Positions 3,299 to 53,003 of a stretch of 64,000 bases of DNA are shown here, piece by piece. A program made the position numbers and the translations under genes. Where the stretch lies: the NCBI RefSeq assembly GCF_055900595.2, contig NZ_CM148325.1. The stretch is one strand, 5' to 3'. A model generated the notes under the pieces. It saw nothing but the letters and a program-made list of their open reading frames with translations, was not told the DNA's origin and did no database searches. How positions within the stretch are numbered: position 1 is the first letter of the stretch; each line of letters opens with the position of its first letter.

Positions 3299-5581
3299 AT
3301 GTCCGAGCTTAATGAAAAGTTAGCCACAGCCTGGGAAGGTTTTACCAAAGGTGACTGGCAGAATGAAGTAAACGTCCGTGACTTCATTCAGAAAAACTAC
3401 ACTCCGTACGAGGGTGACGAGTCCTTCCTGGCTGGCGCTACTGAAGCGACCACCACCCTGTGGGACAAAGTAATGGAAGGCGTTAAACTGGAAAACCGCA
3501 CTCACGCGCCAGTTGACTTTGACACCGCTGTTGCTTCCACCATCACCTCTCACGACGCTGGCTACATCAACAAAGCGTTGGAAAAAGTTGTTGGTCTGCA
3601 GACTGAAGCTCCGCTGAAACGTGCTCTTATCCCGTTCGGTGGTATCAAAATGATCGAAGGTTCCTGCAAAGCGTACAACCGCGAACTGGACCCGATGATC
3701 AAAAAAATCTTCACTGAATACCGTAAAACTCACAACCAGGGCGTGTTCGACGTTTACACTCCGGACATCCTGCGTTGCCGTAAATCCGGTGTTCTGACCG
3801 GTCTGCCAGATGCTTATGGCCGTGGTCGTATCATCGGTGACTACCGTCGCGTTGCGCTGTACGGTATCGACTACCTGATGAAAGACAAATACGCTCAGTT
3901 CACCTCTCTGCAGGCTGATCTGGAAAACGGCGTAAACCTGGAACAGACTATCCGTCTGCGCGAAGAAATCGCTGAACAGCACCGCGCTCTGGGTCAGATG
4001 AAAGAAATGGCTGCGAAATACGGCTACGACATCTCTGGTCCGGCTACCAACGCTCAGGAAGCAATCCAGTGGACTTACTTCGGCTACCTGGCTGCTGTTA
4101 AGTCTCAGAACGGTGCTGCAATGTCCTTCGGTCGTACCTCCACCTTCCTGGATGTGTACATCGAACGTGACCTGAAAGCTGGCAAGATCACCGAACAAGA
4201 AGCGCAGGAAATGGTTGACCACCTGGTCATGAAACTGCGTATGGTTCGCTTCCTGCGTACTCCGGAATACGATGAACTGTTCTCTGGCGACCCGATCTGG
4301 GCAACCGAATCTATCGGTGGTATGGGCCTCGACGGTCGTACCCTGGTTACCAAAAACAGCTTCCGTTTCCTGAACACCCTGTACACCATGGGTCCGTCTC
4401 CGGAACCGAACATGACCATTCTGTGGTCTGAAAAACTGCCGCTGAACTTCAAGAAATTCGCTGCTAAAGTGTCCATCGATACCTCTTCTCTGCAGTATGA
4501 GAACGATGACCTGATGCGTCCGGACTTCAACAACGATGACTACGCTATCGCTTGCTGCGTAAGCCCGATGATCGTTGGTAAACAAATGCAGTTCTTCGGT
4601 GCGCGTGCAAACCTGGCAAAAACCATGCTGTACGCAATCAACGGCGGTGTTGACGAAAAACTGAAAATGCAGGTTGGTCCGAAATCTGAACCGATCAAAG
4701 GCGACGTCCTGAACTACGATGAAGTGATGGAGCGCATGGATCACTTCATGGACTGGCTGGCTAAACAGTACATCACCGCACTGAACATCATCCACTACAT
4801 GCACGACAAGTACAGCTACGAAGCCTCTCTGATGGCGCTGCACGACCGTGACGTTATCCGCACCATGGCGTGTGGTATCGCTGGTCTGTCCGTTGCTGCT
4901 GACTCCCTGTCTGCAATCAAATATGCGAAAGTTAAACCGATTCGTGACGAAGACGGTCTGGCTATCGACTTCGAAATCGAAGGCGAATACCCGCAGTTTG
5001 GTAACAACGATCCGCGTGTAGATGACCTGGCTGTTGACCTGGTAGAACGTTTCATGAAGAAAATTCAGAAACTGCACACCTACCGTGACGCAATCCCGAC
5101 TCAGTCTGTTCTGACCATCACTTCTAACGTTGTGTATGGTAAGAAAACTGGTAACACCCCAGACGGTCGTCGTGCTGGCGCGCCGTTCGGACCGGGTGCT
5201 AACCCGATGCACGGTCGTGACCAGAAAGGTGCTGTAGCATCTCTGACTTCCGTTGCTAAACTGCCGTTTGCTTACGCTAAAGATGGTATCTCCTACACCT
5301 TCTCTATCGTTCCGAACGCACTGGGTAAAGACGACGAAGTTCGTAAGACCAACCTGGCTGGTCTGATGGATGGTTACTTCCACCACGAAGCATCCATCGA
5401 AGGTGGTCAGCACCTGAACGTTAACGTGATGAACCGTGAAATGCTGCTCGACGCGATGGAAAACCCGGAAAAATATCCGCAGCTGACCATCCGTGTATCT
5501 GGCTACGCAGTACGTTTCAACTCGCTGACTAAAGAACAGCAGCAGGACGTTATTACTCGTACCTTCACTCAATCTATGTAA
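3299..5581 (+). CDS. pflB: pyruvate formate-lyase (formate C-acetyltransferase 1)
   Basis: 760-aa ORF, recognisable PflB sequence including the C-terminal glycyl-radical motif region (RVSGYAV). Confidence 0.95.
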
Positions 5582-15896: not shown

Positions 15897-16066
15897 AATG
15901 GCTCACTCAAGCTTGCTCACGATTGATTCCAGTAACAAACCGTATTGTGTAATTATTTCTATAGCAGGTCGCTATATAGGCTTGTATATATCGAATAATT
16001 TGAAAATCAAAGAGATATGTAGATTTTCACTCGAAAGTAGTATTACGTGTAAGTGAGGAGTAATTA

Positions 16067-16080
16067 TTGTTCGGTATCAA
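16067..16080 (-). promoter_or_regulatory. FNR-box-like site upstream of dmsA (TTGATACCGAACAA on the minus strand)
   Basis: matches TTGAT-N4-ATCAA consensus with one mismatch; lies 12 bp from the prophage att core. Confidence 0.5.
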
Positions 16081-16091
16081 AGGGAGACAAA

Positions 16092-16106
16092 AAAAGCGCC
16101 CGCAGG
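16092..16106. repeat. att core copy, integrase-proximal
   Basis: exact 15-mer shared with 53386..53400. Confidence 0.8.
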
Positions 16107-16192
16107 AGATTTAACGGTACTTACTCCTCTTGCTGATTTCCTTATTTTTCAATAAGTAAACAAAAACAAGGGGAGCAAATTATCACAAATAA

Positions 16193-17257: not shown

Positions 17258-17599
17258 TCAGCCAGCATTGCGGCCTGATTGGGGTGATTTTTGGGTATTG
17301 CGGGTTGAAACCTGATCGTCCTCCGACTGCGTGGAGCCATCAAGAGAGAGAGCCGGGGCGATCTGACCGGCAACAGGTAGCGTCTTATCTTTGATTAGCC
17401 AGAACATATATTTTTCAAACCGATCCACTTGAAGGACGGCCTCAACAATCTTTGCTCTGGCGATCTTTTGCCCTGACTCATAATTCCTGACAGTTGCCAG
17501 AGATAACCCTGTAATATCAGCAAATTGCTTTTGAGTTAGCCCTTCCGTCTTGCGTATCAAACGCAACTTTTTCGCATAGTCTATTGACAAGATACTCAT
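17258..17599 (-). CDS. P2 C-type immunity repressor
   Basis: 113 aa, HTH (LTQKQFADITGLSLATVRNYESG) and GQIAPAL motif resembling P2 C; divergent from the early operon. Confidence 0.8.
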   Translation of the reverse strand: MSILSIDYAKKLRLIRKTEGLTQKQFADITGLSLATVRNYESGQKIARAKIVEAVLQVDRFEKYMFWLIKDKTLPVAGQIAPALSLDGSTQSEDDQVSTRNTQKSPQSGRNAG

Positions 17600-22579: not shown

Positions 22580-25090
22580 ATGAGCCATCACCACACGCAC
22601 CTGGCGTACCCGTGGAACGCCCCGCTGCCGGTTATTGATCCTGAGACATTCGGCAGAGCATTACCGCAGAAGCCAACCGCATTACAACGGGCAATCCGTG
22701 ACTACCTCACCGAAGACATTCGCACTGAGGCCCGGCTGGATGAAGAAACCGTGGCCTTCCTGACAACCACGGACAAAGGTAAGCAAATTAATTCACACCT
22801 TCACCGGGACGAAGAGCGGCAGATAAGGCTGGATAAGCTGGCACGACACAGACGCGAAAATCCGCCAACGGCGGTATCGGAGGCGATAGCCGAACTTCGC
22901 ACCCTGCCCTCGTTTCTTGCCAGTGTGTTGATCCGTGATCTGGCACGACTGAACCGGAAACAGCAAAGTGCCCGCAGTGAAGGTGTAAAAAACAACAGCG
23001 CATACGTGGCCGATAATTTCGTTCGCCGTGGACTGCGTGCGCGCCTGAAACGTATTGAAAGGGTTAACGACCGCTTTGCAACGCCGGCATTCAAAACCAC
23101 CGTCGTGCGCCATCGCCTTGAAGAACTGCTCACACTGCCGCAACTCACCCGTGACGAAATCCAGCGCATCGCCACACTGACAGCCCAGGCATTCGCCGCA
23201 GAATTTGAACGCATATGTGATGAAGTTCTTGAACGGACAGGCAAGGATAATGACAGCCCGGTTATCTGGCTGCTGGCCTACCAGAAGGTGGCACGCACAG
23301 CCTTAATTCTGGGCATGGTCCCGCCATACTGGCCGGAACTCGAAATCAGGCACAACCGACGCACACCGCCGGACCCTGAACGGGTTCCGGGTGCGGTACT
23401 GCGCATCACCTGCGCGACCTGGTGGAACAACCAGTTACGCCACGTCGCCGATCTCTGGCGGGAGGAGTTACTGCGCGCCGCCGGCAGAGTGTCACGTAAA
23501 CAATCCCCCTATATCAGCCATGAGTCACTACTGGAGTTCCGCGAGAAGCGCCAGCGCACCTGTGACTTTCTCAAAAGCTGGGATATTGAAAACGAAGACG
23601 GCGAGCGCCTGAGTCTGGAGGACGTGTACTGGGCTGGCCTGGGTAATCCACGCAACCGCCGCAATGAAATGATGGTCTGCGTCAGAGGGATGGAGATGGT
23701 GGCCGAATTACGGGCTGACGTCGCATTCTTCATCACAGTAACCACCCCTTCCCGCTTTCACAGCGTGAACGAGAACGGCAGCCTGAACCCGAAATACAAC
23801 GGTGCCACAGTACGAGATGCCAGTGATTATCTGGTTTACGACTTCTTCGCAGCCGTAAGAAAAAAAATAAAAAAAGAGGGGCTGGGCTGGTACGGCGTGC
23901 GAACCGCTGAGCCACACCATGACGGCACGCCACACTGGCATATGCTGGTATTCACTTCCCCGGAGAACGCAGAGCGCATCATCGAAATTATGCGCGAAGC
24001 AGCAATTAAATCAGATCGCCACGAACTGGGGGACGATATTTCACCGCGCTTTAAATGCGAGAAGATAGACCCGGAAAAAGGCACACCGGCAAGCTATATC
24101 GCAACCTATATCGGTAAGAACCTGGACGCCAGCGCTTTCCACAACAATGATCCGAAAACCGGAAAACCTTACGTTGATGAGGAATCCGGGAAAACCATGG
24201 CGGAAACCGTGGAGAACGCCATTGCCTGGGCAAGCCTTCACCGCATCCGTCAGTTCCAGTTTTTCGGCATTCCGCCCCGCCAGGTATGGCGTGAACTCCG
24301 CCGCCTTGCAAGCCAGATGGAGCGCAACCCGGCATCACCGAAGCACCTCGATCATGACGATATTGACGCCATTATGGCTGCCGCAGATGTGGGATGTTTT
24401 GCCACCTACATCATGAAACAGGGTGGTGTGCTCATTCCGCGCAACCAGTATCTGGTCCGCACCGCATACGAAACCGCAGACGAAGCCAACGACTACGGTG
24501 AACTCCCTCAACGTATCTACGGAATCTGCGCCCCGTCGCTCGGAGAGCGGTACACCATATGCACCCATCCGGACGAGTGGAAACTGGTTAAAAAAGAAAC
24601 AATACCAGACAACCGCACGGGCGAGGGTTTTGACCTTCAGGGCGACCCCGTCGCCCCTTGGACTCGTGGCAATAACTGTCCCCGGGATGAAAAAACAGAC
24701 AATCACGGACCAGAAAACAGGCAGGACCCCGGACGACTGACGCTTCCCGAAGAGAACCTGGAAAGCTGGCTGAATACGTTAAGCAGGGGCGATCGGAGAA
24801 AACTGCGTAATCAGATTAAAAATCAGCCGTCGGGCGCAAAAACCGGACAAAACGACACCACACCGGCATCTGACACCCCTGTAAGGGTGGGGATTGTCGT
24901 GCCTGCGGATACCGCGACGGACACGCAAATCGCCCGCGAACTTGATGCGCTGGGTGTGCAGTTGCCTGACGCGGCCATCATCTCCGTGCGTAACGGTGCC
25001 CGTGTGCGTCTGGATAACGGGGGAACAGCGTACTGGGATGAGTCAGCCCGTCACATCATCACAGAGCAGCCAGTGGAGGCGGGAGCATGA
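22580..25090 (+). CDS. A: P2 gpA-family rolling-circle replication initiation protein
   Basis: 836 aa; HWHMLVF histidine motif and catalytic Tyr region (YIATYIGKN) typical of P2 A. Confidence 0.85.
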   Translation: MSHHHTHLAYPWNAPLPVIDPETFGRALPQKPTALQRAIRDYLTEDIRTEARLDEETVAFLTTTDKGKQINSHLHRDEERQIRLDKLARHRRENPPTAVSEAIAELRTLPSFLASVLIRDLARLNRKQQSARSEGVKNNSAYVADNFVRRGLRARLKRIERVNDRFATPAFKTTVVRHRLEELLTLPQLTRDEIQRIATLTAQAFAAEFERICDEVLERTGKDNDSPVIWLLAYQKVARTALILGMVPPYWPELEIRHNRRTPPDPERVPGAVLRITCATWWNNQLRHVADLWREELLRAAGRVSRKQSPYISHESLLEFREKRQRTCDFLKSWDIENEDGERLSLEDVYWAGLGNPRNRRNEMMVCVRGMEMVAELRADVAFFITVTTPSRFHSVNENGSLNPKYNGATVRDASDYLVYDFFAAVRKKIKKEGLGWYGVRTAEPHHDGTPHWHMLVFTSPENAERIIEIMREAAIKSDRHELGDDISPRFKCEKIDPEKGTPASYIATYIGKNLDASAFHNNDPKTGKPYVDEESGKTMAETVENAIAWASLHRIRQFQFFGIPPRQVWRELRRLASQMERNPASPKHLDHDDIDAIMAAADVGCFATYIMKQGGVLIPRNQYLVRTAYETADEANDYGELPQRIYGICAPSLGERYTICTHPDEWKLVKKETIPDNRTGEGFDLQGDPVAPWTRGNNCPRDEKTDNHGPENRQDPGRLTLPEENLESWLNTLSRGDRRKLRNQIKNQPSGAKTGQNDTTPASDTPVRVGIVVPADTATDTQIARELDALGVQLPDAAIISVRNGARVRLDNGGTAYWDESARHIITEQPVEAGA

Positions 25091-25518
25091 CGCGATTTTG
25101 CTGCACCATGCAGCGCCCACAGTTTGAGGCCATCATGCGCCAGCGTATGCCGGTGCTGACACTGTTCAGGCCTGCCACAAGGCCACAACCGGGCGACGAG
25201 CTGGAAATCACGATAGTCAGCCCCGATCGCACCACGGAGACCACCATCGCCGACATACTCAACAGGCGGCCGGGCAGCGAGAGCCATAGCTGGACTGTCG
25301 TCATTCGTCCGCGCCGTTCGCCGGAGGAACCGGAGCCGTGCACGCCTGCCGGGAAAATCATGCAGAGATATCACGAAGAGCGGACACGCAGGCACAACGG
25401 CGGACTGGCCAGAACACTGAACACAGTCAATCACAAGGCCGCGCTGGCGCGAATGGTCTTTTCACCACAACGCAATTCATTCGCCAGACCAGCACAGAAC
25501 GGGAGGAAACAACAGTGA
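25087..25518 (+). CDS. hypothetical Arg-rich protein, translationally coupled to A
   Basis: 143 aa; ATGA overlap with A stop; RBS GGAGG. Confidence 0.45.
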   Translation: MTRFCCTMQRPQFEAIMRQRMPVLTLFRPATRPQPGDELEITIVSPDRTTETTIADILNRRPGSESHSWTVVIRPRRSPEEPEPCTPAGKIMQRYHEERTRRHNGGLARTLNTVNHKAALARMVFSPQRNSFARPAQNGRKQQ

Positions 25519-25709
25519 GCAGAATATTACTTTTTCTGCTGTTTTTCGCGCCATTCGCACAATCAGCCACGCCGAACTGCGTAGCGAAAAAGAGCAACAC
25601 CGTTGTCATTGTCCAGTGTGATGACGGCACGGTAACAATCACCGACTCGAGCAAAGGAAGCGTCATTGTCTGCCGTAAAGAGAAACCCTGTCAGCGAACC
25701 GAACTTTGA
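25515..25709 (+). CDS. small secreted Cys-containing protein (64 aa)
   Basis: GTG start overlapping upstream stop (GTGA), RBS GGGAGGA; N-terminal signal peptide ILLFLLFFAPFAQSA; 4 Cys. Confidence 0.45.
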   Translation: MSRILLFLLFFAPFAQSATPNCVAKKSNTVVIVQCDDGTVTITDSSKGSVIVCRKEKPCQRTEL

Positions 25710-25720
25710 AGGAAAAATAT

Positions 25721-26035
25721 ATGAACAGGAAACAGAAGCAGGAACTGAAAGGCTTCTTACGTAAAGAAATTGCCAGGCTGGAAGATGTGGAATCTCAGTC
25801 ATCAGATATTCCATTCGGAATGGATATCAACGACGCCTGTATGCTCCAGGTATACCGCATAGCTCAGGCTGCACTACAGGCAAAACCGTCAGATGGACTG
25901 GTTAGAGCAGTACGTTTCTATGAACTGGTAAAGCGTGAGAATCCGCCAGTCGAAACCGGAGCATGGCAAGACGCTGTTGACTGGGTGCTCAAAGAGGCTT
26001 GTCAGGTTGTAAACACTGGCATCAAAGGAGACTGA
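25721..26035 (+). CDS. hypothetical protein (104 aa)
   Basis: co-directional, 12 nt after upstream stop. Confidence 0.5.
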   Translation: MNRKQKQELKGFLRKEIARLEDVESQSSDIPFGMDINDACMLQVYRIAQAALQAKPSDGLVRAVRFYELVKRENPPVETGAWQDAVDWVLKEACQVVNTGIKGD

Positions 26036-26036
26036 T

Positions 26037-26246
26037 ATGGCTATTGCCGCAAGTTACACCATGCATCTCTATTGTGATTGTCGCCAGTGTACAAATGGTA
26101 AATATCAAACGCCAGACTTCGGTGAATATATCGGTACGTCATGGACTGGCTGTGCAAAAGAGGCGCGTAAGGATGGCTGGCGAATAAGCAAAGACAAAAC
26201 TCGTGCTTTTGCGCCCGGGCATAAAGTTTTGAGGATTAACAAATGA
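26037..26246 (+). CDS. small Cys-rich (putative zinc-binding) protein
   Basis: 69 aa with CDCRQC...C; starts 2 nt after upstream stop. Confidence 0.5.
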   Translation: MAIAASYTMHLYCDCRQCTNGKYQTPDFGEYIGTSWTGCAKEARKDGWRISKDKTRAFAPGHKVLRINK

Positions 26247-26644
26247 CCACTATAACCAAAGAGCGACTACTGACAATCAGGCAGTGGCGCGAAACATACG
26301 GACCTGGTAGCAACGTTGTACTGCCAGCCGAAGAAGCGGAAAAACTGGCACGGATTGCTTTGGCATCGCTGGAAGCAAAACCAATAGGTGCTTTCCACAT
26401 TGCAGAACAGCAGGTCGATGGCACAAGTGACTACATCAAGGATGGGGAGTACCGCTTGCTGACATCTGAAGAACAAAAGATAGCCCAACTTTTAGGCGAT
26501 GCATGGAACCTGTATTTTACATTGCCAGTTGAGCATCCAATGGGTAGAGATGAATTTTGCCGGGCAATTCATCATTGCCAAAATATGGTGTTGGCACGCC
26601 CTGCCATCAGGGCGCTGGCCAGTAAGGGGCAAGGCTATAAATAG
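26243..26644 (+). CDS. hypothetical protein (133 aa)
   Basis: overlaps upstream stop by 4 nt; followed by terminator. Confidence 0.5.
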   Translation: MTTITKERLLTIRQWRETYGPGSNVVLPAEEAEKLARIALASLEAKPIGAFHIAEQQVDGTSDYIKDGEYRLLTSEEQKIAQLLGDAWNLYFTLPVEHPMGRDEFCRAIHHCQNMVLARPAIRALASKGQGYK

Positions 26645-26650
26645 ATGAGC

Positions 26651-26679
26651 AAAACGCCCTCCTCCAGGGCGTTTATTTC
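26651..26679 (+). terminator. rho-independent terminator ending the early/cargo operon
   Basis: AACGCCCT-CCTCC-AGGGCGTT hairpin followed by TATTT. Confidence 0.6.
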
Positions 26680-26681
26680 AA

Positions 26682-26708
26682 TGCACAATAGTGCACAAAT
26701 TTGCACAA
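26682..26708. promoter_or_regulatory. three TGCACAA direct repeats at exact 10-bp phasing
   Basis: copies at 26682, 26692, 26702. Confidence 0.5.
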
Positions 26709-26856
26709 TTTTTTTGAACGACTTTTTGCCCTTCCGGCCCGTGTGGCGTCTGGATCCGTCGGGGATCCGTGCGTGCACGAAAAAAGGCCTTTTTCTGCGC
26801 GCAGGTGACGGGGGAACAGCCCGCGTTTCAGGGGGTAAATAGCATTCCCTGAACGA

Positions 26857-26874
26857 TGTTGCAGCGACACAACA
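26857..26874. promoter_or_regulatory. TGT-N12-ACA dyad (candidate Ogr-type late activator site) upstream of the 27137 gene
   Basis: TGTTGCAGCGACACAACA; a bare TGT-N12-ACA match is expected by chance several times per 64 kb, so support is weak. Confidence 0.3.
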
Positions 26875-27136
26875 GAATGGCTGTATTTCTCACGCTGAGC
26901 GTAAAAAAGACGTAAAAGCTTGATTTGATGGGGGTGAAAGATAAGGCCGTCAAAATCGCACTGAGGCAGCGAGAATATGTCGTCAGAGTTGCGGGGTTGC
27001 GTAAGCATCCGCCCGGCGATGATGGCTACAAGGTTGGAGATGTTGTGAAATTATCTGAAGGAATAACCAGCTTGCAGGAGAACCCGGGCAAAGTCAGAAT
27101 AGCGGCAGGCATCAACTCAAAAGAGGATAATGTCAT

Positions 27137-27638
27137 GAGCCACTTTAATGATTTATGCCAGATCAATCGTGAAGCTGAAGAAAAACGCGCTGAGGCAGCT
27201 CAAATTTTGCGGGATGAAGCGGCAAGGCTGATTGATTTCTATGAAGAATGGCTGGGGCTTCCATCCATGTACTGGGAAGACGATGATGGCGACCTGCACC
27301 GCTACGTGGAGACAGGCTTGCCATGTAAGACAGCGGCGGATTTTAGTCCTCTTTCAGTCCACAATATCGCATCTGCACCAGACAATATTTTCCGCATGGC
27401 CGTGCGAACCTGGGTTAAGTCATCTGACAGCAGCTACCCGGTAAGCGTGGTTATTGCACTTGAATTATATTCAGTAGATGCGGAACGGGTGTCTCTGAGA
27501 GTCCGGGTGGAAGACGATATTTCTGTTCGCGTATTTATCAATAAACCCAGCGAAGAAGCCTGGGGCGATGTTGTTATGCACATGAAAAAGCACATCGCTA
27601 ATCACCTGAAAAAGCGAGCGCCATCAGCACTTCGTTAA
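27137..27638 (+). CDS. hypothetical cargo protein (167 aa; possibly 237 aa from 26925)
   Basis: strong RBS AAAGAGGA before MSHFNDLCQ; occupies the P2 tin/old position next to the portal gene. Confidence 0.5.
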
Positions 27639-27704: not shown

Positions 27705-28760
27705 TCAGGATATGGGCTGGGTGTCTAACAGTGCGTAAGGGTTAAAACGGATCACCTCTTCGCCCAGCCAGTCGTTGACGTGTTTCATTGCTTCCATGAC
27801 GGGCATCAGTTCGTTAATGGCAAACACACGGGCTGCCTTCTCCACATCCCCGAATGACCCCTTCTCACCCGGCATGGCCCCCATCAGCTGCGGCGGTACA
27901 CGGTGCACGGACAGCACATCATCACGCGATGCAGCCTTGACGTTCATGAACTCATCCTTTGCGGTGATTTGCTGAAACGGCAAAATCTGTACGCCATCCT
28001 TACCACCTCCCGCCGCGTGGATGAGCAGATTTTTAAACGCCCCGCCACCACGCGCGCTTTGCAGTGTTTCCCGCAGTTTTTCCATGCTTTCACGGTCAAC
28101 CTGCGCCGCACCGATGTAGACAATACAGCCCGCGTGTGAGCCGTTATCGTAGTAGAGCTTGCGGAAGATATCGGCGGAATGTGACAGGCTGGCAGACAGC
28201 AGGCCGCCCAGGTAATCCGGCATCCCGTAAATCTCCTGGTTGATATCAGGATTCATCAGGTGGCATATCGTCCCCTCACGAAAGCGGTACTCTTCCTGTC
28301 CTTCCTGTATATACCACCATGATTTCATATCGCTGCCACGTCGCATGTATTTCGCCAGCGCCCGGCGCAGGGCCAGCGGTTCGCCAAGCATGTTGCGCCG
28401 CAGCTCAAGACAGGCATTACCGAACACAAACCAGTCCATCGCCACCCCGGCGAACTCCTGGCGGGACAGCAGAGGATGTGGAATATAGCAGCCCAGCAGC
28501 ACATTACGTTTGAAGCTGAGCGCCGACTGGTGCCAGGACGTCTGGCGGGCAGCCCGTGCCAGTCCGTACCAGTCAACGGGCGTTTCAAACCACCGCCCGT
28601 TGTCGGCGCAGTACATGCTGTCCAGCAGGTCGGCCCCTGACAGCCGGTAAGGTCCTTCAAACGTGAAGGCACTCAGTGTCGGGTCGCTTCGCAGGGAATC
28701 CGCAAGGCTGCCCTGCGCTGCGCGGGCGTTCGTACGTCGTTGTTTATTTTTTCTGCTCAT
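27705..28760 (-). CDS. Q: portal protein (P2 gpQ family)
   Basis: 351 aa, size and position match P2 Q upstream of terminase P. Confidence 0.8.
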   Translation of the reverse strand: MSRKNKQRRTNARAAQGSLADSLRSDPTLSAFTFEGPYRLSGADLLDSMYCADNGRWFETPVDWYGLARAARQTSWHQSALSFKRNVLLGCYIPHPLLSRQEFAGVAMDWFVFGNACLELRRNMLGEPLALRRALAKYMRRGSDMKSWWYIQEGQEEYRFREGTICHLMNPDINQEIYGMPDYLGGLLSASLSHSADIFRKLYYDNGSHAGCIVYIGAAQVDRESMEKLRETLQSARGGGAFKNLLIHAAGGGKDGVQILPFQQITAKDEFMNVKAASRDDVLSVHRVPPQLMGAMPGEKGSFGDVEKAARVFAINELMPVMEAMKHVNDWLGEEVIRFNPYALLDTQPIS

Positions 28761-30511
28761 CAGAACTCCGTAACACTGAAGGGGGCGGCATCATGTTCAC
28801 CGCCGACAGGTTCGTTGATAACGGCCAGCATGGTGGCCCATGCAAGATCGCCATGGCTTACGCCTCTTGCGCGATCTGTTTCGTAGGTGATAAATCCGGC
28901 CTGCGTTTTTGTTTTGCGTACCGCGTTAAAGGCGCTCACCAGTTCGCGCTCGCTGCGGTCGTACTCCCACCGCCCGGCGCGCATGAGCTGCAGCATCTTC
29001 AGAACCAGCGTGCGCTTTGATGACAGGGTGAAGGTGTAGGGAATGGCTGCCGGAAAAAAGCGCTTCACAATCTGATACACCGCATCCCCGTGACCGCCGG
29101 TTACGTCAATACCGATATGCTCAACGTTATAGCGAAAGGTGAACTCTTCAATCACCTTCGCCTGCGCCTCAAACTCCAGCCCCTGCACCCGCCGCGTCTC
29201 CACGGTGCGAAAACGCCCGCCCGGTACGGCTGGCGGCACCACCACGACAACCGCCCCGCTGTCACCGTTCCCGCTACTGCCGTTGGCGTCGTACCCAATC
29301 CACACAGGGCGGTTCCCCATCGGACGCGGTGCAAACGGCTTCCAGTCCGGCCACTCGTCGTATCCGTCAACACCGCAGCCAATCAGGATATTCAGGTTAA
29401 ATGCCGATTCCCCTTCGCGAGCAAATTCACACATGTAGAGATTGCGGAACTCGTCTTCAGTGTTATTGCGCCGGATTTTGTCAATGTTGGTTAACGTCCA
29501 TCCCTGACTGACCACATCTTCCAGCGTCACAATTTGCCGCCAGATATAGTCAGGACAGATAAGGCCGTTATGAAGCGCATTCCAGCTCACATCAAAATGC
29601 TGACGTTTATGAGTACGAAGCCCTTCATTCCAGTGATCGCCGTTCCAGTATGCATACGCCTCATGTGTTTCACTTGATGGCGTGGAAAAATAGGTACACC
29701 GCAAACCATCCAGCGTTGCCATAGCAGCAGCCACCTTGCGCAGCTCTGCGAAACGCCCCGTCCAGAAAAACTCATCAAAATACAGATTCCCTGTGTACGC
29801 TTGCGCGGTGGCCGCAGAAGTGCCGAGAAAATGCAGCTCTGCACCGTTGGAGAGGATGACTTTATCGCCCCCTTTCAGTTCCACATCAACTTCAGATGCA
29901 GCCTTCTGAATAATGCTTTTAAACTGGAGCGCCTGACGACGAGACGCAGACAAAAAAATCTGGTTACGCTGGTAAGGTTGTGCCACATCGTCACGCAGCG
30001 CCATCAGCAGCGCTTCCTGCGCAAAATACCAGGTCGCCCCAATCTGGCGGGATTTCAGGATCATCCTGTCAGTAATTCCGGCACGCTCACAGGCACCGAT
30101 AGCATCAAGCCATTTGCGCTGGTGTCCGGCCAGCCTGTCGGTAATTTTTTCCCGCAGCGCCGCGATCTGTTCCGGCGTGAAATGATTTTTGTGTTTTTTC
30201 GCCCGGCCTTTCTTTCCTGTTGCCGTCTCATCCGGCAGACCGTCATGCAGCTTTTTAAGCTGACGGGTCAGCAAATCAATTTCCTTAAAGTCCCCGCCTG
30301 TTTTATTCTGTTTTTCCGTGAGCTGAATGAGTCGCGCATCCATGGACTGCGTGACACGCTGAACCGGGGGCGTCTCATCCCACTGGTCGCGTTTTTTCCA
30401 CGAATGGATCGTGTTCTGGTTGATACCCATAAGGCGGGAAATTTCCGCAACAGGGTAACCCTGCCAGTACAGCTGGCGTGCCCGCTGGCGAACAAATGTA
30501 TCCTGAATCAT
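28760..30511 (-). CDS. P: terminase large (ATPase) subunit (P2 gpP family)
   Basis: 583 aa, P2 P-like sequence. Confidence 0.85.
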   Translation of the reverse strand: MIQDTFVRQRARQLYWQGYPVAEISRLMGINQNTIHSWKKRDQWDETPPVQRVTQSMDARLIQLTEKQNKTGGDFKEIDLLTRQLKKLHDGLPDETATGKKGRAKKHKNHFTPEQIAALREKITDRLAGHQRKWLDAIGACERAGITDRMILKSRQIGATWYFAQEALLMALRDDVAQPYQRNQIFLSASRRQALQFKSIIQKAASEVDVELKGGDKVILSNGAELHFLGTSAATAQAYTGNLYFDEFFWTGRFAELRKVAAAMATLDGLRCTYFSTPSSETHEAYAYWNGDHWNEGLRTHKRQHFDVSWNALHNGLICPDYIWRQIVTLEDVVSQGWTLTNIDKIRRNNTEDEFRNLYMCEFAREGESAFNLNILIGCGVDGYDEWPDWKPFAPRPMGNRPVWIGYDANGSSGNGDSGAVVVVVPPAVPGGRFRTVETRRVQGLEFEAQAKVIEEFTFRYNVEHIGIDVTGGHGDAVYQIVKRFFPAAIPYTFTLSSKRTLVLKMLQLMRAGRWEYDRSERELVSAFNAVRKTKTQAGFITYETDRARGVSHGDLAWATMLAVINEPVGGEHDAAPFSVTEF

Positions 30512-30573
30512 TTCTCCCCCTCATGTGATTCAGGCAGTTTACTCACCCCTTACAGGCCTCCTGCCATGCCCGG

Positions 30574-30597
30574 TGTTGTCGGCATTCGCTTACAACA
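30574..30597. promoter_or_regulatory. dyad TGTTGT-N12-ACAACA (inner TGT-N12-ACA) between divergent P and O
   Basis: perfect 6-bp inverted repeat centred about 55 bp from inferred starts of both P and O. Confidence 0.55.
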
Positions 30598-30665
30598 AAC
30601 GCACTTTGTCTGTCCCTGCCCCGTTTTGCCATCATGAGACAAACGATCATCACGAGGGCCCGACA

Positions 30666-31502
30666 ATGCCTGAACAGAAAAAAACATCCCGTAAAACATT
30701 CCGCGTGGCCGTTTCCGGTCCCACCGCAGACGGTCGCGAAATCAGTGCCGCAGATTTGCGCGCGGCGGCCAGTAACTTCAACCCTGAGATTTACGGCGCA
30801 CGCGTGAACGTGGAGCACTGGCTTTCACCGGTTCCGTCCAGTGAATTTTCCGCCATGGGTGATGTGACGGCACTGAGCACAGAAGAAATCACCGAAGGTC
30901 CGCTGGTCGGTCGTACTGCGCTGTATGCGGAAATCGAACCCACCGACCGCATGAAAAATCTGGTCTCCCGGGGTAAGAAAATTTACTCCAGTATTGAGCT
31001 GGCACGAAATTTCACCCCTACGGGCACCCCGTATCTTATTGGCCTTGCCATGACAGACACCCCGGCAAGCATCGGCACGGAGCGTCTTCAGTTCGCCCTG
31101 CAGCAGCGCCGTTCGGTCATGACCTTCAATAATCAGCAGACGGAAGCACCGATGTTCTCTGACGCCATTGAGGCTGAAGTGATCGAACTGACGGAGCGCC
31201 GCAGCGAGGAAGGTGCGCAGTGGCTTAACCGCGTGATGAACATGATTGGGCGAGGACGCAGGGCTGACGACACCCGGTTCTCCCGCATTCATGACGCCGT
31301 TGAGGGGATAGCCTCATCGCATGCCGACCTTCTCGACCGCTTCAGTGCACTGGAATCGCGCCATCAGGCAGACAGACAGAAAATCGCCACCCTGTCCACT
31401 GAGCTGGCAGAGCTGAAAAACAGACTGCGCGGACTGGACGCTGATCAGGAAAGTCGTTTTACGGCAACCGGCGGGCAGTCCAGACAACTGGCTGACTACT
31501 GA
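30666..31502 (+). CDS. O: capsid scaffolding protein (P2 gpO family)
   Basis: start at MPEQKKTSRK within the longer six-frame ORF; position between P and N. Confidence 0.8.
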   Translation: MPEQKKTSRKTFRVAVSGPTADGREISAADLRAAASNFNPEIYGARVNVEHWLSPVPSSEFSAMGDVTALSTEEITEGPLVGRTALYAEIEPTDRMKNLVSRGKKIYSSIELARNFTPTGTPYLIGLAMTDTPASIGTERLQFALQQRRSVMTFNNQQTEAPMFSDAIEAEVIELTERRSEEGAQWLNRVMNMIGRGRRADDTRFSRIHDAVEGIASSHADLLDRFSALESRHQADRQKIATLSTELAELKNRLRGLDADQESRFTATGGQSRQLADY

Positions 31503-31530: not shown

Positions 31531-32670
31531 ATGAATCTGATCATGAGCGATGCCGCGCGGGCCGAGCTTTTTGCTTACCAGGCACAACAGGCGGAGATGA
31601 ATAACATCACGATATCTGCGCTCTCCTCCCGCTTTTCGGTACAGCCGGCAGTGCAGCAGAGATTTGAAAACGCATCAAAGGAAAGCCATGATTTTCTTCA
31701 GAAAGCCAACAGCATTGGTGTGACAGAGCAGAAAGGTGAAAAGGTACTCCTGGACACCACCGGGCCGGTTGCGCGCACGAACAGCAGTTATGACGGTACA
31801 AATCGTCGTAACCCGCTGAATGTGGTGGACATGAAAGCGCGACGCTATGAGTGCGAGCAGGTGAACTACGACACCTTCATCTCCTACCCTCAGCTTGACA
31901 TGTGGGCCGGACACCCTGACTTCCAGCTGCGTGTGAGTCGCCAGATTGCCAGACAGGTGGCACTTGATCGCATCATGACAGGTTTTAACGGTACGCACCA
32001 TGCGGAAGTCTCGGATATAAAAAAACACCCGCGACTTGAGGACGTCAATAAGGGGTGGCTGCAGGATATCAGGGACCAGGCCCCGCAACGCGTCATGAAA
32101 GACGTGATGCTGACTGCGCGCAATATGGACAATTCGGTGGCATACACAGGCAGATACGCCAATCCCGATGCACTGGTCCAGGATGCACGCTCATCCCTGC
32201 TTGATGAATGGCACAAGGACGCAGACGACCTCGTTGTCATCATGGGGCGAAACCTCTTTAACTCCCTGCGCCTGCCGGTCCTGAACAGTATCAGCATGCA
32301 GAATGCGAATGCCGAACTGCTTGCCGGACAGCTCATTGTGTCAACGCGGACCATTGGCGGCCTTGATGTGTACCTTGCGCCATTTTTCCCGGCTCAGTCA
32401 ATGCTCATCACCTCATTCAGCAACCTGTCGGTTTACTGGCAGAAGGGGTCCATGCGTCGTCTCATGAAGGATGAGCCCGAATACAACCGTATCGCCATCT
32501 ATCAGTCCGTTAACGACTGCTATGTGGTTGAGGACCATGGTAAGTGCGCACTGATTGAGAATATCAGCTTTGCCACATATGACCATGACGCGCCGGACTG
32601 GTACCGGGAGGGCATAAAAGCACTGTCAGCGCAGGCTGAAGACAAGGATGCAGGGGAAGAGGAGGATTAA
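31531..32670 (+). CDS. N: major capsid protein (P2 gpN family)
   Basis: 379 aa with clear similarity to P2 N as recalled. Confidence 0.85.
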   Translation: MNLIMSDAARAELFAYQAQQAEMNNITISALSSRFSVQPAVQQRFENASKESHDFLQKANSIGVTEQKGEKVLLDTTGPVARTNSSYDGTNRRNPLNVVDMKARRYECEQVNYDTFISYPQLDMWAGHPDFQLRVSRQIARQVALDRIMTGFNGTHHAEVSDIKKHPRLEDVNKGWLQDIRDQAPQRVMKDVMLTARNMDNSVAYTGRYANPDALVQDARSSLLDEWHKDADDLVVIMGRNLFNSLRLPVLNSISMQNANAELLAGQLIVSTRTIGGLDVYLAPFFPAQSMLITSFSNLSVYWQKGSMRRLMKDEPEYNRIAIYQSVNDCYVVEDHGKCALIENISFATYDHDAPDWYREGIKALSAQAEDKDAGEEED

Positions 32671-35617: not shown

Positions 35618-36068
35618 ATCCCTGAGCACACACATGAGTACAGCGTGCCGGTGGTGCAGGGCCAACCCGGAAAAGTTCACCGTGTTCATTGAACGTGGCG
35701 GGATAGAGACCACCGGCGAGACGCCGACGTTCGTGTACAACTACCGGCTGGTGATGTTCGTGATGGACTACACGGGCGATCTGGACAACCTGACGCTTCC
35801 ACTGATTGTCTGGCTGGCAGAGAACCAGCCGCAGTTGCTGCTTAATCCTGAGCGCAACAACGATATTCAGTTCACGGCGGCCATTAACGACGACGACAGC
35901 GCGGACGTGCTGTTTGAGCTGCCGTTACGTGAACGCGTGCGCGTCACCCGCAGGGATGACGGCACCCTCATGACAGAACATCTACCGGAGCCGAAATCAC
36001 GCATCCCGCAGGACGGCGACTGGTCACACATTCTGGAGGATGTGACGTGGAACATTGTCACCGGATAA
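35604..36068 (+). CDS. R: tail completion protein (P2 gpR family)
   Basis: 154 aa from MLKSKSLSTHM; position. Confidence 0.65.
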   Translation: MLKSKSLSTHMSTACRWCRANPEKFTVFIERGGIETTGETPTFVYNYRLVMFVMDYTGDLDNLTLPLIVWLAENQPQLLLNPERNNDIQFTAAINDDDSADVLFELPLRERVRVTRRDDGTLMTEHLPEPKSRIPQDGDWSHILEDVTWNIVTG

Positions 36069-36083: not shown

Positions 36084-36740
36084 ATGGGGAAACTGAGATA
36101 CCGTAACCTCGTTCCCGCTGAAGGAATGAGTAACATGTTTGTCAATATCCGGCTGGCAACCAGCCCGCAGGCAGTGAAGCGCATTGCCGCGCATGTGGGT
36201 AAGGAGCTGCGGCGCGTGAACCAGAGCCGGATGCGCGCCCAGAAAGCGCCGGACGGTTCGGTGTGGACACGCCGTAAACGCCGTATATCACGCCTTCAGG
36301 AGCGCATCAGCTTTATCTGGCAAAACCAGAACCGCACCCTGAAAAACTGGCATCACGGTTCAGGAAAATACGGCCAGACCATCACCGGCTGGGATGAAGA
36401 CCGGAGCGGCATACGTACCTTTTACCGGAGTGATATCCTCCGTTTCCTTGAAATCAGGACACGCCGCATCAACCGTGACACCACAAAAACGGTGCCGATG
36501 TTTGCGAAGCTGCGCACGGCCCGTTATCTGAAAGTGAAGGCGGACGCATCAGGCGTGACGGTGGGCTACAGCGGCGTGGCGGCACGCATTGCCCGCGTTC
36601 ACCAGTTCGGGGAGCGCGACCGGGTGGCCGCAGGGATGTATACGGATTATCCGGCCCGTGAACTTCTTGGAATAACACCGGCAGATGAACGACTTATTCA
36701 GCGTATCATTATGGACAATATCGCGAGGGCTGTGGCATGA
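36084..36740 (+). CDS. S: tail completion protein (P2 gpS-like)
   Basis: position between R and V; start uncertain. Confidence 0.6.
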   Translation: MGKLRYRNLVPAEGMSNMFVNIRLATSPQAVKRIAAHVGKELRRVNQSRMRAQKAPDGSVWTRRKRRISRLQERISFIWQNQNRTLKNWHHGSGKYGQTITGWDEDRSGIRTFYRSDILRFLEIRTRRINRDTTKTVPMFAKLRTARYLKVKADASGVTVGYSGVAARIARVHQFGERDRVAAGMYTDYPARELLGITPADERLIQRIIMDNIARAVA

Positions 36741-37318
36741 ACGCGGAATTAATGCGCCTTATCAGCAACATCATCAGAACCGGCGTGATTTTCGACGTGA
36801 ACCCGCAGACCTGGGAGGTCCGGGTGCGCAGTGGCGGACTGGAGACAGGCTGGCTTCGCTGGAGCACCGCGCGGGCGGGCGCGTTCAGTGTCTGGGTGCC
36901 GCCAGCCACCGGTGAACAGGTGGCGTTCGTCTGTATCGGTGGTAATCCCGAAACCGCGATAATCATCGGCAGCCTCTGGAGCGATGATATCCCGGCACCG
37001 GGCAGCACACTGAAGGAAATCATCATGACAGCACCGGACGGTGCGGTATTCCGCTACGATGCAGACGCCGGTGCACTGGAGGTTAAGGGGATTAAAACAG
37101 CCAGCATTCAGGCCGACACGCGCATCACCCTGGACACGTCGGAGGTGGTGTGTACCCGCAAACTTATCACCGCCACCCTGGAGGTGCAGAACGGCGGCGA
37201 GATGCGCGGCAGCATATCCCACAGCGGCGGCAGCCTGACATCCAACGGTATCACCGTTCATACGCACACCCACGGTGGCGTCAGGACGGGCCCGGGCACC
37301 ACGGGAGGCCCGCAATGA
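36737..37318 (+). CDS. V: baseplate assembly protein V (spike)
   Basis: 193 aa, P2 V-like. Confidence 0.8.
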   Translation: MNAELMRLISNIIRTGVIFDVNPQTWEVRVRSGGLETGWLRWSTARAGAFSVWVPPATGEQVAFVCIGGNPETAIIIGSLWSDDIPAPGSTLKEIIMTAPDGAVFRYDADAGALEVKGIKTASIQADTRITLDTSEVVCTRKLITATLEVQNGGEMRGSISHSGGSLTSNGITVHTHTHGGVRTGPGTTGGPQ

Positions 37319-41359: not shown

Positions 41360-41970
41360 TGAGTAACACTGCAGTTCTGGATGAAAACGGTATCGCCACT
41401 TTCGCAGGCGATATCACTGTATATCACTATGATGAGGAAACCCGGGAATACACCTCATCCTCTGTGGAGTATCTCGCCCTGGGGGTGGGTACCCCGGCAC
41501 ATTCATGCGCCGATGCCCCGCCAGAGGCAATGCCGGGTTACGTGATTTGCCGGACGTCCACGCTGGACGGGTGGGAGTATGTCCCCGATCATCGTGGAGA
41601 GACGGTATACAGCACAGAGAACGGTAATCCGGTCCAGATTACCCAACCAGGTGACTACCCGGAAGGGACAACGACAAAACAGCCTGCCACACCATGGGAT
41701 ACCTGGAACGGTGAGGCGTGGGTAACCGATACAGAACGGCAGCAAGCCGAAGAGCTGGAGGTTGCCAGACAGCAACGCAAGGAACGGGTGGATCAGGCGA
41801 TGAAGTCCATCGACCTCATCAACCTTAAGTTGCGGGCAGGTCGCAGTCTGACACCAGAAGAAACGGCAAAACTGAATGCCGTGCTGGATTATATCGACGA
41901 GCTGAACGCACTGGATATCAGCACGGAGCCTGAAATAAGCTGGCCGGAAACACCACCAGAAATGGAATGA
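41359..41970 (+). CDS. G: tail fibre assembly chaperone (P2 gpG family)
   Basis: 203 aa immediately after H with ATGA-type coupling. Confidence 0.8.
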   Translation: MSNTAVLDENGIATFAGDITVYHYDEETREYTSSSVEYLALGVGTPAHSCADAPPEAMPGYVICRTSTLDGWEYVPDHRGETVYSTENGNPVQITQPGDYPEGTTTKQPATPWDTWNGEAWVTDTERQQAEELEVARQQRKERVDQAMKSIDLINLKLRAGRSLTPEETAKLNAVLDYIDELNALDISTEPEISWPETPPEME

Positions 41971-42023
41971 GCGGGGAAAAGGAACGGGCATTCATAAATA
42001 ATTCATCATGCAGGTGCCGCAAG

Positions 42024-42043
42024 AATGCGGCACATTACCTTCA
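42024..42043. terminator. bidirectional hairpin between convergent G and U (GTGCCGCA-AGAA-TGCGGCAC)
   Basis: perfect 8-bp stem. Confidence 0.5.
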
Positions 42044-42529
42044 CATCAGATCATTTACGCCGCTTACTGTGGTATTCCAGACCGAACTTAACTTCCCTTT
42101 CATTCCCGAAAGCATATCAGACACCGGCGACGAGGCCATACTCTCCCGCAAATCCTCATCACAGCGTTCCAGACTGACAGTGAACTCAATTTTTTTGGCC
42201 TTACCGTGGCGGTCAAGTTCGCTTCGCGTTGTGCGGACAGCCGTTATCACATACATGCCGTATATCTGCCCCACACCGTCAATCAGCGGCCATGGGCGAC
42301 CAGTGTAAGCCTGCGTCGTTAAAAGGCTGAGGGAAACCTCACCGCCGGTAATTTCGGGATAAAGCACACCGGACAACGTGATCTGGTCGTCACCCGCCCC
42401 GATATACTGCCAGCTGGCCGAACGATTGATGCGTTCATTTTTAACGTGGCGCCAGGTTTTATTATGTTGCAGTTGTTGATGAGGCAGCGTACGCAACTCA
42501 AAAACAAACATGCCGTAAATCATCATCAT
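42041..42529 (-). CDS. U: tail protein U
   Basis: 162 aa, P2 U-like (MMMIYGMFVFELRTLP...). Confidence 0.85.
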   Translation of the reverse strand: MMMIYGMFVFELRTLPHQQLQHNKTWRHVKNERINRSASWQYIGAGDDQITLSGVLYPEITGGEVSLSLLTTQAYTGRPWPLIDGVGQIYGMYVITAVRTTRSELDRHGKAKKIEFTVSLERCDEDLRESMASSPVSDMLSGMKGKLSSVWNTTVSGVNDLM

Positions 42530-42540
42530 GCGAGGTACTC

Positions 42541-45500
42541 CTAATCTCTGTCACGGAAACTACCGACTGTCTGGCGGATACGGCGTTCCATTTCCGCACG
42601 GACGGCATCACCCACCATTTTTGCCAGTTCGCGCGGGTTTTGCGTGTGAACATCATGCAGGTGAATATGCAGTTCGCCAGTTAATCCCCATGGTGCCGGC
42701 TCACTCTGGCGCGGTCGGGGCGATGCGGGGGATATGGGCTGGCGCACAGCCTCAACCACCGGACGGGATGTTGCCGCCATCACTGGTGTCATTAGCGGGG
42801 AGAACGTCGGCATGACATCGTGAGTCATAACCGGTTTGATCACCGGCGGAACCACTGGCGTAATATTACCGGACAGTACCGGACGGACGACCGGAGGAAT
42901 AACCGGCACATTATTCACGGACACCACCGGCTTCACGACCGGCGACACGTTCGCCGTGGTGGATATCAGCGGCGAAACACTGACAGGCGGTGGCGCTGGC
43001 AGCGGTGGCAACGAAGGCACACTGACCGACGGCACCTGCGGCAGTCTGACAGGTGGCTCACTGACACTACCCGGTAACAGGGAAGCTGCTCGGTTAAAGC
43101 GTTCCTCCTTCCACTCACCACGAACGGCCAGCGCTTCCGGCAGGTTTTTAAAGATAATATCGCCGGGACCAGCGCGTTTTTTCGCCTGTTTCGCCTCATC
43201 CAGCAGACCACCGGTGTTATCGACGATTTTGTTCAGGCGGCGCATAGTGCCGGTATTCTCCCCCGTCAGGGGTGGTTGCCCCCCTTTGGGTTTTTCGCCG
43301 TCTTTTTTATCCTCGTCCTTTTTCGGCGGATTAATGACGTTAACATCCGCCAGAAGCATGGCAGCTTTCTCGTTCAGCAACTCCTTCTGTTTTAGTTCTT
43401 CCGCCTTTTTCCGGGCGCGCTCAACCGCCGACGGAATCAGCCCGAGTTTTTCCAGCACCCGGGTTAATGAGTCAATCAGCAGCGTAACCGGACCGGTCAC
43501 CAGATTGCTGATAAACTCCCCGACCTTCTGCCCGAACGTACGCCCGGCTTCCGTGCACTTGTCCAGCTCATCCTTTGTTGTGCTTACCGGCGCGAACAAA
43601 TCCACGAACCACTGCCACACACGCCCGATTGTCTGCCCGACATACTCAAACAGCGGTCCCAGTGGTGCCACAGCCTCGCGCAGTGGCGTAAGCCCCTGCC
43701 ACAGGCCGGACAAGAACCCGCCCACGACAGCCTTCAGCTGGTCCCAGTGCCGCCAGATAAGCACTGCCGCACCGACCAGTGTCGCCACCACAAGGCCCAC
43801 CGGACTTAACAGAAAACCCAGCGCCCCGCCAAGTGCGCCCACCGCACCACTCACCATCCCCCACAGTGCGGGCAGACCTGACAGTCTGAGCGCCAGTATT
43901 CCGATACCGCGCCCCAGTGAAATCAGTGCGCCGCCAGGTGAAGTGAACGCAGCCAGCAGACCACCACGCAGCGCGCCAAGTCCCGCCTGCACACCACGAA
44001 GCCGCCCCGCAACTACGCCCAGCAGTGCAGCAAACCGTCCGGCACCGGAGGTGATACCGACAAACAGCACGCGCCAGCCACCGATACCGCCCAGCGGACC
44101 ACCGAGTACGCCGCGCAGCTGCGTCAGTAACGGCAGCGCACGACCGAGGCCGGATGTGCCGGTCAGCAGGGCAAACCCAAGACGCAGTTTTGCCAGCGGC
44201 CCCATCAACACACCAGTGGCAAGTGACAGCGCCCCCATGGCCGCAACCGCAGCCAGCAGTACACCACCGGCAATCAGCAGTTGTTTTGTCAGTTCAGGGT
44301 GCGCCTGAGCCAGCGCGGTGACTTTCGCAATAACCCGGGTGAACGACTGCGTGACAGAACGCAGCGGCCCGTCAACGAGGTCAGCGACACGGATACGCAG
44401 TCCTTCCCATGCGCTGTTCAGTGATTTCAGGTCACCGTCCAGGTTATCAGCCATAACACGGGCAGTGTGATTAAGTTCCCCGGTGGCCAGTTCAATCTCC
44501 TGCGTAAGACGGGGAAGATTATTTTCCCCCGCCGCAGTGACAAGATTCATCAGGGAAACATAGGACTCCTGCCCGGCAATAGCCCTGAAAAAGGAGACCT
44601 GCGCGGCATTACCGTATTTTCGGGTGGCCTGGTACAGCTCATTCAGGATATTTTCCATCCGGCGCATGTTCCCGTAAGCATCCTGCGTCTCCACGCCAAG
44701 CTCTTTCAGTGCCATTGCAGCGGCCTTCGGCGGATCAACCAGACGTGACAGACTGGCACGCAGCGCCGTACCTGCATCACTTCCACGGATCCCCACACTG
44801 CCAAGGACACCCGTCATGGCTGCCGCCTGTTCAAGGGACAGGCCAAGTGAAGCTGCAACCGGACCCGTGTACTTCATGGTTTCACCCAGCGAACGGAGAT
44901 CCGTATTGGTTCGTGTGAAGGTGGCGGCCAGCGTGTCACCCACGCGATCCATCTGGTCAGCGGACAGACCAAACTGTGTGAGGATATTCGAACTGATATC
45001 GGCAGTCTGTCCCAGGTCCATCCCTGCAGCCATTGCCAGATCAAGCACGCCGGGTAGCGCCGCCTGTATGGCCTGTGGTGTGAAGCCGGCCATGGCAAGG
45101 AACGCCTGACCGCTGGCAGCATCACCGGCGGTAAACTGCGTTTCAGAGCCCAGCTTAATGGCCTGTTCGCGCAGCGCCTTAAACTGCGGACTGTTTTTGT
45201 CAATACGGGTCAGCGCCTGGACGCGCGACATCTCCTTACCAAAACTGACCGCCGGTTGCAGGAAACGTCCGGCCGCATAGCCGCCTGCCGCCGCCGTACC
45301 AACCGCCGTAAGTCCGACCGTTTTAAGTTTTCCCGCCGTCTCCTGAGCACGGGAATATTGCTGGCGTGCCTGCGTGACACGTGCCAGCGCCTGCCGTTCG
45401 CGTTCCAGCTGGTCGTTGTATTGCTGTGTTCGCCGTATGGCCTGTTGAATGGTGTTGTCACTGCCGGAAAGCGCAATACCGTGGCGCCGCAGCTCACCAC

Positions 45501-48127: not shown

Positions 48128-48198
48128 TTTCACCCTTGTCTGGCTGGTTGATTTTGCGTAATCATTACCCACACACGCGGTAATCTCACCCCTTTGAT

Positions 48199-48220
48199 GT
48201 TGTCTCCTGACAGCGACAAC
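48199..48220. promoter_or_regulatory. dyad GTTGTC-N10-GACAAC (contains TGT-N12-ACA) in divergent FI/D intergenic region
   Basis: inverted repeat centred about 55 bp from inferred starts of both FI (minus) and D (plus). Confidence 0.55.
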
Positions 48221-48285
48221 AAAACAGCCATTCAACGCCGCTGCGGTGCATGAAACCATTACAGAACGCACCAGGAGAGAACACC

Positions 48286-49377: not shown

Positions 49378-49420
49378 AATTAAAATGAGCCATCTCCACT
49401 CAGCCAGATAAGGAGAAGCC

Positions 49421-49672: not shown

Positions 49673-49784
49673 GAACAATAATCAGGTTGAGAGGACATCA
49701 TAAGGCAAGTAGATTAACGGCAGATACTTTCCCGCAACCACGGGCAAGTATTTAATTATCCATGATGAAATATGACCTAAATTG

Positions 49785-49817
49785 TTTTTTGCCCGCCGGA
49801 AAGCGGGCATTTTTTTA
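49785..49817 (+). terminator. terminator hairpin copy 1 (GCCCGCCGGAAAGCGGGC plus T-run)
   Basis: first of nine near-identical hairpins in 49.8-53.0 kb. Confidence 0.7.
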
Positions 49818-52975: not shown

Positions 52976-53003
52976 TCACCCTCACCAGTGAGGGCATCAT
53001 CAT

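Follow-up and report, generated by a model that had tools for sequence, protein, structure and literature searches.

A predicted Ogr-family activator site common to the divergent promoters of terminase and scaffold genes in a P2-like prophage of Escherichia coli

The divergent late genes P and O of a P2-like prophage are separated by a non-coding gap (the P/O gap, 30512..30665, 154 bp) that holds just one TGT-N12-ACA-type dyad. This dyad, the perfect repeat TGTTGT-N12-ACAACA, is very probably the operator at which a zinc-finger activator of the Ogr family, encoded by the prophage itself, acts, and it would serve two back-to-back late promoters, PP and PO. The gap is predicted to carry a single activator site that is equidistant from the two divergent promoters and is used in both directions. 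Ogr recognises inverted repeats whose centre is at about -55, and it requires the RNA polymerase alpha subunit (PMC3152322). Where that source cites Wood et al. 1997, activation in P2 is stated to need the alpha-CTD and to be blocked by rpoA109 (PMC3152322).

In the proposed mechanism, the product of ogr (49421-49672) would bind the two-fold symmetric TGTTGT-N12-ACAACA sequence. The centre of the site would lie ~55-56 bp upstream of a leftward start at ~30529, for P-Q (terminase and portal), and the same centre would lie ~55-56 bp upstream of a rightward start at ~30641, for O-N-M and the genes that follow (scaffold, capsid, other head, lysis and baseplate genes). The Ogr homologue would recruit RNA polymerase via the alpha-CTD to both promoters, each with only a -10 element, turning on P-Q and O...G together. 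A second identical dyad would have an equivalent role for two further units, FI...U and D(-ogr). For the prophage, we infer activator binding, the start sites, activator dependence and the alpha-CTD contact.

The prophage and its late genes

The window, which is the whole stretch of 64,000 nucleotides analysed, contains a P2-like prophage of ~33.6 kb that extends from an integrase gene (16193-17197) to ogr and is inserted in the dmsA/serS interval of an Escherichia coli chromosome. The serS gene is 99.9% identical to that of some E. coli genomes. About 25 complete E. coli genomes carry a near-copy of the prophage (at least 99% identity), and P88-like relatives occur in several hundred; the P/O region itself is 100% identical in ~25 complete genomes of the species. 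Among named phages, P88 and other Xuanwuvirus members come closest, at just ~73% nucleotide identity. No direct repeat of at least 12 nt, such as an attachment-site core, is common to the presumed prophage ends (15850-16300 and 49600-50200). The genes on which the argument depends are as follows.

27705-28760, minus strand: gene Q, portal (Pfam Phage_portal); second in the P-Q unit, in the same order as in P88
28760-30511, minus strand: gene P, terminase large subunit (Pfam Terminase_6N, Terminase_6C and Terminase_5, gpP-like); first in the P-Q late unit
30666-31502, plus strand: gene O, capsid scaffold/protease (Pfam Phage_GPO, E=3.9e-87); first in the long O...G late unit
31531-32670, plus strand: gene N, capsid (Pfam)
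42041-42529, minus strand: gene U, tail (Pfam)
46934-48124, minus strand: gene FI, tail sheath (Pfam Phage_sheath domains); first in the FI-FII-E-T-U unit
48286-49377, plus strand: gene D, tail/baseplate hub (Pfam Phage_GPD; PHROG 52, tail protein); reads away from FI
49421-49672, plus strand: ogr homologue, 83 aa, predicted cognate activator (Pfam Ogr_Delta PF04606, E=4.9e-14)

The genes that flank the P/O dyad are morphogenetic, with P terminase and Q portal on one side and O scaffold and N capsid on the other; the second dyad is likewise flanked by the genes for sheath FI and tail protein D. The start codons of P (ATG ending at 30511, minus strand) and O (30666, plus strand) are matched by PGAP calls in an identical E. 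coli prophage and are also backed by tblastn against P88, in which the match begins at residue 1. The start of D is most likely the ATG at 48286, which is preceded by the Shine-Dalgarno sequence AGGAGA.

The Ogr homologue is 42% identical to P2 Ogr and conserves all four cysteines. Its cysteine motif is CX2C-X24-CX4C, compared with X22 in P2 Ogr, a two-residue insertion between the cysteine pairs, and its C-terminal part is unlike that of P2 Ogr in both length and sequence. These divergent features might accompany the fully symmetric extended site in the prophage. No solved structure was found for the Ogr family, the sole match being a marginal zinc finger (E=0.037).

In P88, the interval between G and U (25416-27564) holds a tail-fibre segment that can invert, together with a DNA invertase; the prophage lacks this module, and in it G (end 41970) almost abuts U (42529, minus strand) within 41970-42541. 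Downstream of the prophage genes, the stretch between ogr and serS (49700-53430) is a mosaic of direct repeats in nine families, with copies 65-98% alike and start-to-start spacings of ~0.2 to 2 kb. It includes an ORF for a Hok/Gef-family toxin (50708-50848, plus strand; Pfam PF01848, E=8e-7) overlapped by a mok-like ORF, as well as a degenerate second copy near 52566-52796, and gave no Rfam match. P88 has a single hok locus at the corresponding place.

The P/O dyad and the promoters it may serve

The sequence-only reading had placed the dyad at 30574..30597, and these coordinates are exact. The site and the promoter elements predicted on its two sides are listed below.

30574..30597, no strand: perfect dyad TGTTGT-N12-ACAACA; predicted single Ogr-family activator site common to PP and PO, centre 30585.5
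30536..30541, minus strand: -10-like TAAACT of predicted PP; predicted start ~30529-30530
30627..30635, plus strand: extended -10 TGcCATCAT of predicted PO; predicted start ~30641-30642

The dyad comprises TGTTGT at 30574-30579, a 12-nt spacer at 30580-30591 and ACAACA at 30592-30597, and its inner TGT-N12-ACA occupies 30577-30594. The exact extended motif occurs twice in the 64-kb window and in none of 100 dinucleotide-preserving shuffles; even for a version with one mismatch, the expectation is 0.20. Late genes diverge at just two places, the P/O and FI/D gaps, and each of these holds one of the exact copies. The bare TGT-N12-ACA core is not enriched in the window (10 seen, 16.7 expected), so the signal comes from the extended arms and their location.

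Other copies of the core were considered as a third late site and set aside, and no sites with the conserved register were found beyond P/O and FI/D. The copy at 35755-35772 is inside a tail gene and, as the core motif is unenriched, was taken as chance. The copy at 26857-26874 (TGTTGCAGCGACACAACA) lies ~266 bp upstream of the probable start of a PHROG-5091 gene, is without the ACAAC register, and is probably chance as well. It is situated directly past a terminator-like hairpin of the early operon and upstream of an ORF at 26925-27638. Similarity of this ORF to PHROG 5091, of unknown function, begins only at residue 70, which puts the real start near 27132, too distant from the dyad.

The window was aligned with P88, P2 and 186 across the P/O gap, with regulatory facts for P2 and 186 taken from GenBank feature tables and secondary citations. 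In this alignment, the TGTT.T motifs of all four share columns. In GenBank, P2 (AF063097) has one feature labelled "activator binding site; pO, pP promoters" (3057-3087), flanked by mapped starts for the P operon at 3016 (minus) and the O operon at 3127 (plus), and the centre of its inner TGT-N12-cCA is 55.5 bp from either start. The record of 186 (U32222) similarly annotates one B-protein site at 3798..3817 for "activation of pV and p12 promoters". Transferred to window coordinates, the P2 site corresponds to 30571-30601, the 186 site to 30575-30594, the P2 P-operon start to 30529 and the P2 O-operon start to 30641. The alignment thus supports the P/O dyad as the positional homologue of the single shared activator site annotated in P2 and 186. 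The suggestion that each divergent late pair uses one activator site gains backing from the same homology.

The earlier estimate that the dyad is centred about 55 bp from the starts of P and O stands for transcription starts aligned with those of P2, relative to which the centre is at -56.5 (30529) and -55.5 (30641); it fails for the start codons, which are 74.5 bp (P) and 80.5 bp (O) from the centre. By an equivalent computation, the activator sites of P2 are centred at -55.5, -55.5, -56.5 and ~-57.5. The predicted start-to-start distance is 112 bp in the window vs 111 bp in P2. The predicted PP hexamer aligns with TAGCCT of P2, which forms positions -12 to -7 of the mapped P2 PP start, and in the window 32 bp separate the dyad box from the -10 hexamer on either side. 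The -10 hexamers have three to four of six consensus matches and were chosen with the expected position known. A consensus scan of 30400-30800 gave no sigma-70-type promoter, a result that fits activator dependence. PP and PO appear to have -10-like elements only, with no usable -35, and for this reason they are proposed to stay silent until the activator recruits RNA polymerase.

The dyad could instead be bound by a different protein, such as a host regulator or a phage repressor or Cox, and be unrelated to late activation. TGT-N12-ACA is also the consensus of the unrelated PpsR/CrtJ regulators in other bacteria; however, these are photosynthetic bacteria and not E. coli. In addition, the dyad is positionally homologous to the P2/186 activator site, it recurs solely at the second late-gene gap, and a gene for a cognate activator is present in the same prophage. 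Binding by an unrelated protein is therefore highly improbable.

Conservation in relatives and the FI/D site

IMG/VR yielded 77 related P/O gaps, of which 23 are distinct, and 81 related FI/D gaps, of which 49 are distinct and come from several clades. The blocks that are invariant in the 23 distinct P/O gaps include the P ribosome-binding region and CAGG.AG.T.AC, which contains the PP -10 and start. Within the dyad and its edge, T30577, T30579 and ACAACAA (30592-30598) are invariant, as is the PO -10 block TTGCCATCATG (30626-30636). In the PP -10 hexamer, the T, A, C and T positions are kept in relatives. Variation is free in the 12-nt spacer and in most of the sequence around the dyad.

The FI/D dyad that had been reported alongside the P/O dyad is present between FI and D, in a 161-bp gap from the FI ATG at 48124 (minus strand) to the D ATG at 48286 (plus strand).

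48198..48221, no strand: second perfect dyad TGTTGT-N12-ACAACA; predicted site common to PF (minus) and PD (plus), centre 48209.5
48161..48166, minus strand: -10-like AATGAT of predicted PF; predicted start ~48154
48251..48259, plus strand: extended -10 TGaAACCAT of predicted PD; predicted start ~48265-48266

Gene D needs a promoter inside this gap, and the extended -10 at 48251..48259 is the obvious candidate. FI and D are divergent in 81 of 81 FI/D loci. In the 49 distinct gaps, T48201, T48203 and ACAAC (48216-48220) are invariant. So too are AT.AT at 48161-48165, equivalent to positions 2, 3, 5 and 6 of the minus-strand PF -10, and TG 48251-52, A48255 and T48259, which in PD are the TG of the extended -10 and the second and sixth bases of the hexamer. 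A 10-mer, CTCACCCCTT, is found both in the FI/D gap, towards FI (48185-48194), and in the P/O gap, towards P (30542-30551), 3 bp from the dyad in the former vs 22 bp in the latter. Just the CA of the FI/D copy (48187-48188, within TCAC), near the -35 of predicted PF, is invariant (49 of 49 FI/D gaps).

Geometry is conserved at both sites. In every sequence, 31-32 bp separate the 24-bp dyad box from the -10 hexamer on either side of either site: always 31 bp for PF, 31-32 bp for PD, and 32 bp for PO except in one divergent sequence, where it is 31 bp. Fixed half-sites and fixed geometry with a drifting spacer are, as judged from these aligned gaps, the pattern of a protein-binding site and unlike that of a hairpin.

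A nucleic-acid hairpin (a terminator, RNA element or cruciform) or a chance palindrome was also considered. The dyad could form a 6-bp stem, slightly extended by a small inner stem of 3 bp, but its stability is no better than that of shuffled sequences (z=-0.48), 54 of 200 of which fold equally well. The T-run of a terminator is absent and no terminator was called. Relatives keep the half-sites and their spacing with a free spacer, and no compensatory changes that preserve pairing were seen, the conserved half-site bases being kept as sequence. Moreover, with divergent genes on its two sides and both predicted starts downstream of it, the dyad should stay untranscribed, which argues against a hairpin. 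Chance is excluded by the shuffle statistics together with conservation in relatives. A structural or accidental origin of the dyad is scarcely credible on this evidence.

Perfect symmetry is not a general feature of these sites. Most relatives have a degenerate left half-site (TTCT or GTCT), and in P2 the right half is degenerate instead. Perfect symmetry is therefore unnecessary, and symmetry alone is no proof of bidirectional use. The idea that the two sites within a genome co-vary strictly in their half-site variants was considered but not supported, as an IMG genome pairs TGTTGT at P/O with CGTTCT at FI/D.

The inequality of the half-sites in most relatives, with the right ACAACA invariant and the left degenerate, also bears on whether the dyad is an Ogr site for one promoter only (for example PO), P-Q being expressed via another unrecognised element or a constitutive promoter. 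The PP -10 points the same way, being the less conserved hexamer (TAAACT, TAATCT or TCATCT). However, the homologous site in P2 and 186 is annotated for both promoters, with both starts mapped at equal distances; the PP -10 is conserved, as is its spacing of 31-32 bp from the dyad box; and the P/O gap has no other promoter-like site. Service of a single promoter is accordingly considered improbable, and a shared site for PP and PO remains the preferred reading.

Beyond close relatives, one TGT-N12/13-ACA dyad is present in the P-O gap of Fels-2, Klebsiella phage 4LV2017, Yersinia phage vB_YenM_06.16-2, Ralstonia phage RSA1 and Pseudomonas phage Dobby. A dyad of this type is absent from the P-O gaps of K139 and a Mannheimia phage, in which other motifs are present. 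A single shared P-O dyad is widespread among the P2-like phages sampled, but the rule is not universal in the family.

Late-regulon architecture and comparison with known systems

In the P2 annotation, three activator sites serve four late promoters. The F operon of P2, FI...U-D-ogr, is unidirectional from pF, and V-G is transcribed from its own pV; in the window, by contrast, FI...U is inverted relative to D, a layout shared with P88. The S (36084-36740) and V (36737-37318) genes of the prophage overlap, leaving no room for pV, and the same is true in P88. Two bidirectional sites thus appear to serve four late units in the P88-like lineage. The broader proposal is that P88-like (Xuanwuvirus-type) phages run the whole late regulon from two bidirectional Ogr sites as a consequence of FI...U inversion, a new D-side -10 and pV loss; this is slightly more likely than not. 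In such a history, inversion of FI...U would have moved the symmetric pF site beside D, a new -10 on the D side would have turned the pF-derived site into a second back-to-back promoter pair, and overlap of S and V would have removed pV, leaving four late units on two sites where P2 has three sites.

The ogr gene starts 43 bp after D, in the same post-D position as in P2. With ogr directly downstream of D, read-through from PD would give late positive feedback on the activator. Two overlapping TAAAAT sequences directly follow the D stop codon (49375-49386).

49381-49386, plus strand: TAAAAT, the second of the two; probable ogr -10

Judged by eye, this second TAAAAT resembles the ogr -10 of P2 in the D-ogr gap (23996-24002, TAAAATG); a simple consensus promoter scan missed it. 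Its likeness to the annotated P2 element counters the idea that ogr lacks its own promoter and depends on PD only. The gene probably retains its own promoter besides any PD read-through.

The shared-site principle is already established for P2 and 186, in their GenBank records, and is not new. What is mildly new is the architecture alone, a minor variant at FI/D. A two-site arrangement for four late units was not described in the literature searched, coverage of which was incomplete, and the P88 and PhiSM papers are silent on promoters. The prophage adds a clean, perfectly symmetric case of one class-I-type activator site with two divergent promoters, and its wider biological weight is small. 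In practical terms, the late promoters of a common E. coli prophage group become annotatable with confidence, and compact bidirectional Ogr-inducible expression cassettes may be a possible use. The FI/D pair additionally makes a modest point about promoter evolution, in that a symmetric activator site would be reusable in the opposite direction after an inversion.

The closest counterpart of the P/O pair is pP/pO of P2. In both, P-Q is read leftward and O-N-M and the following genes rightward from a single site at an equal alignment position, and both have a TGTTGT left arm, promoters with only a -10 element, and ogr after D. However, the P2 dyad is imperfect (TGTTGT-N12-gCCAtc), whereas that of the window is a perfect 6+6, and the PO -10 of P2 is GAAACT, compared with the extended -10 TGcCATCAT in the window. 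In the p12/pV region of 186, likewise, a single activator site is annotated, flanked by the divergent promoters for terminase and scaffold. Differences from the window are an imperfect right half-site (CCA), B in place of Ogr as the activator, and an uninverted tail operon.

For the FI/D dyad, the counterpart is the P2 pF site (17555..17583), which drives FI-FII-E-T-U and has GTTGT-N12-CCAAC at ~-57. Unlike the dyad of the window and of 81 of 81 P88-like loci, which lies between divergent FI and D, the pF site acts in one direction and D ends the same operon.

More distant parallels come from other hosts. TGTTGT-N13-ACAACA has been reported upstream of the late genes of Ralstonia phages phiRSY1 and RSA1 (PMC5694545), and in Stenotrophomonas phage Smp131, PP' and PO' were both assigned to one and the same 18-bp sequence (PMC3931495). 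In phiRSA1/phiRSY1, as in the window, TGTTGT...ACAACA stands ahead of the P and O homologues, and there it also precedes two other late units (PMC5694545). The spacer is N13, compared with N12 in the window, and the late promoters of the Ralstonia phages and Smp131 are sequence predictions. These phages also differ from the window in their hosts and in their gene rearrangements.
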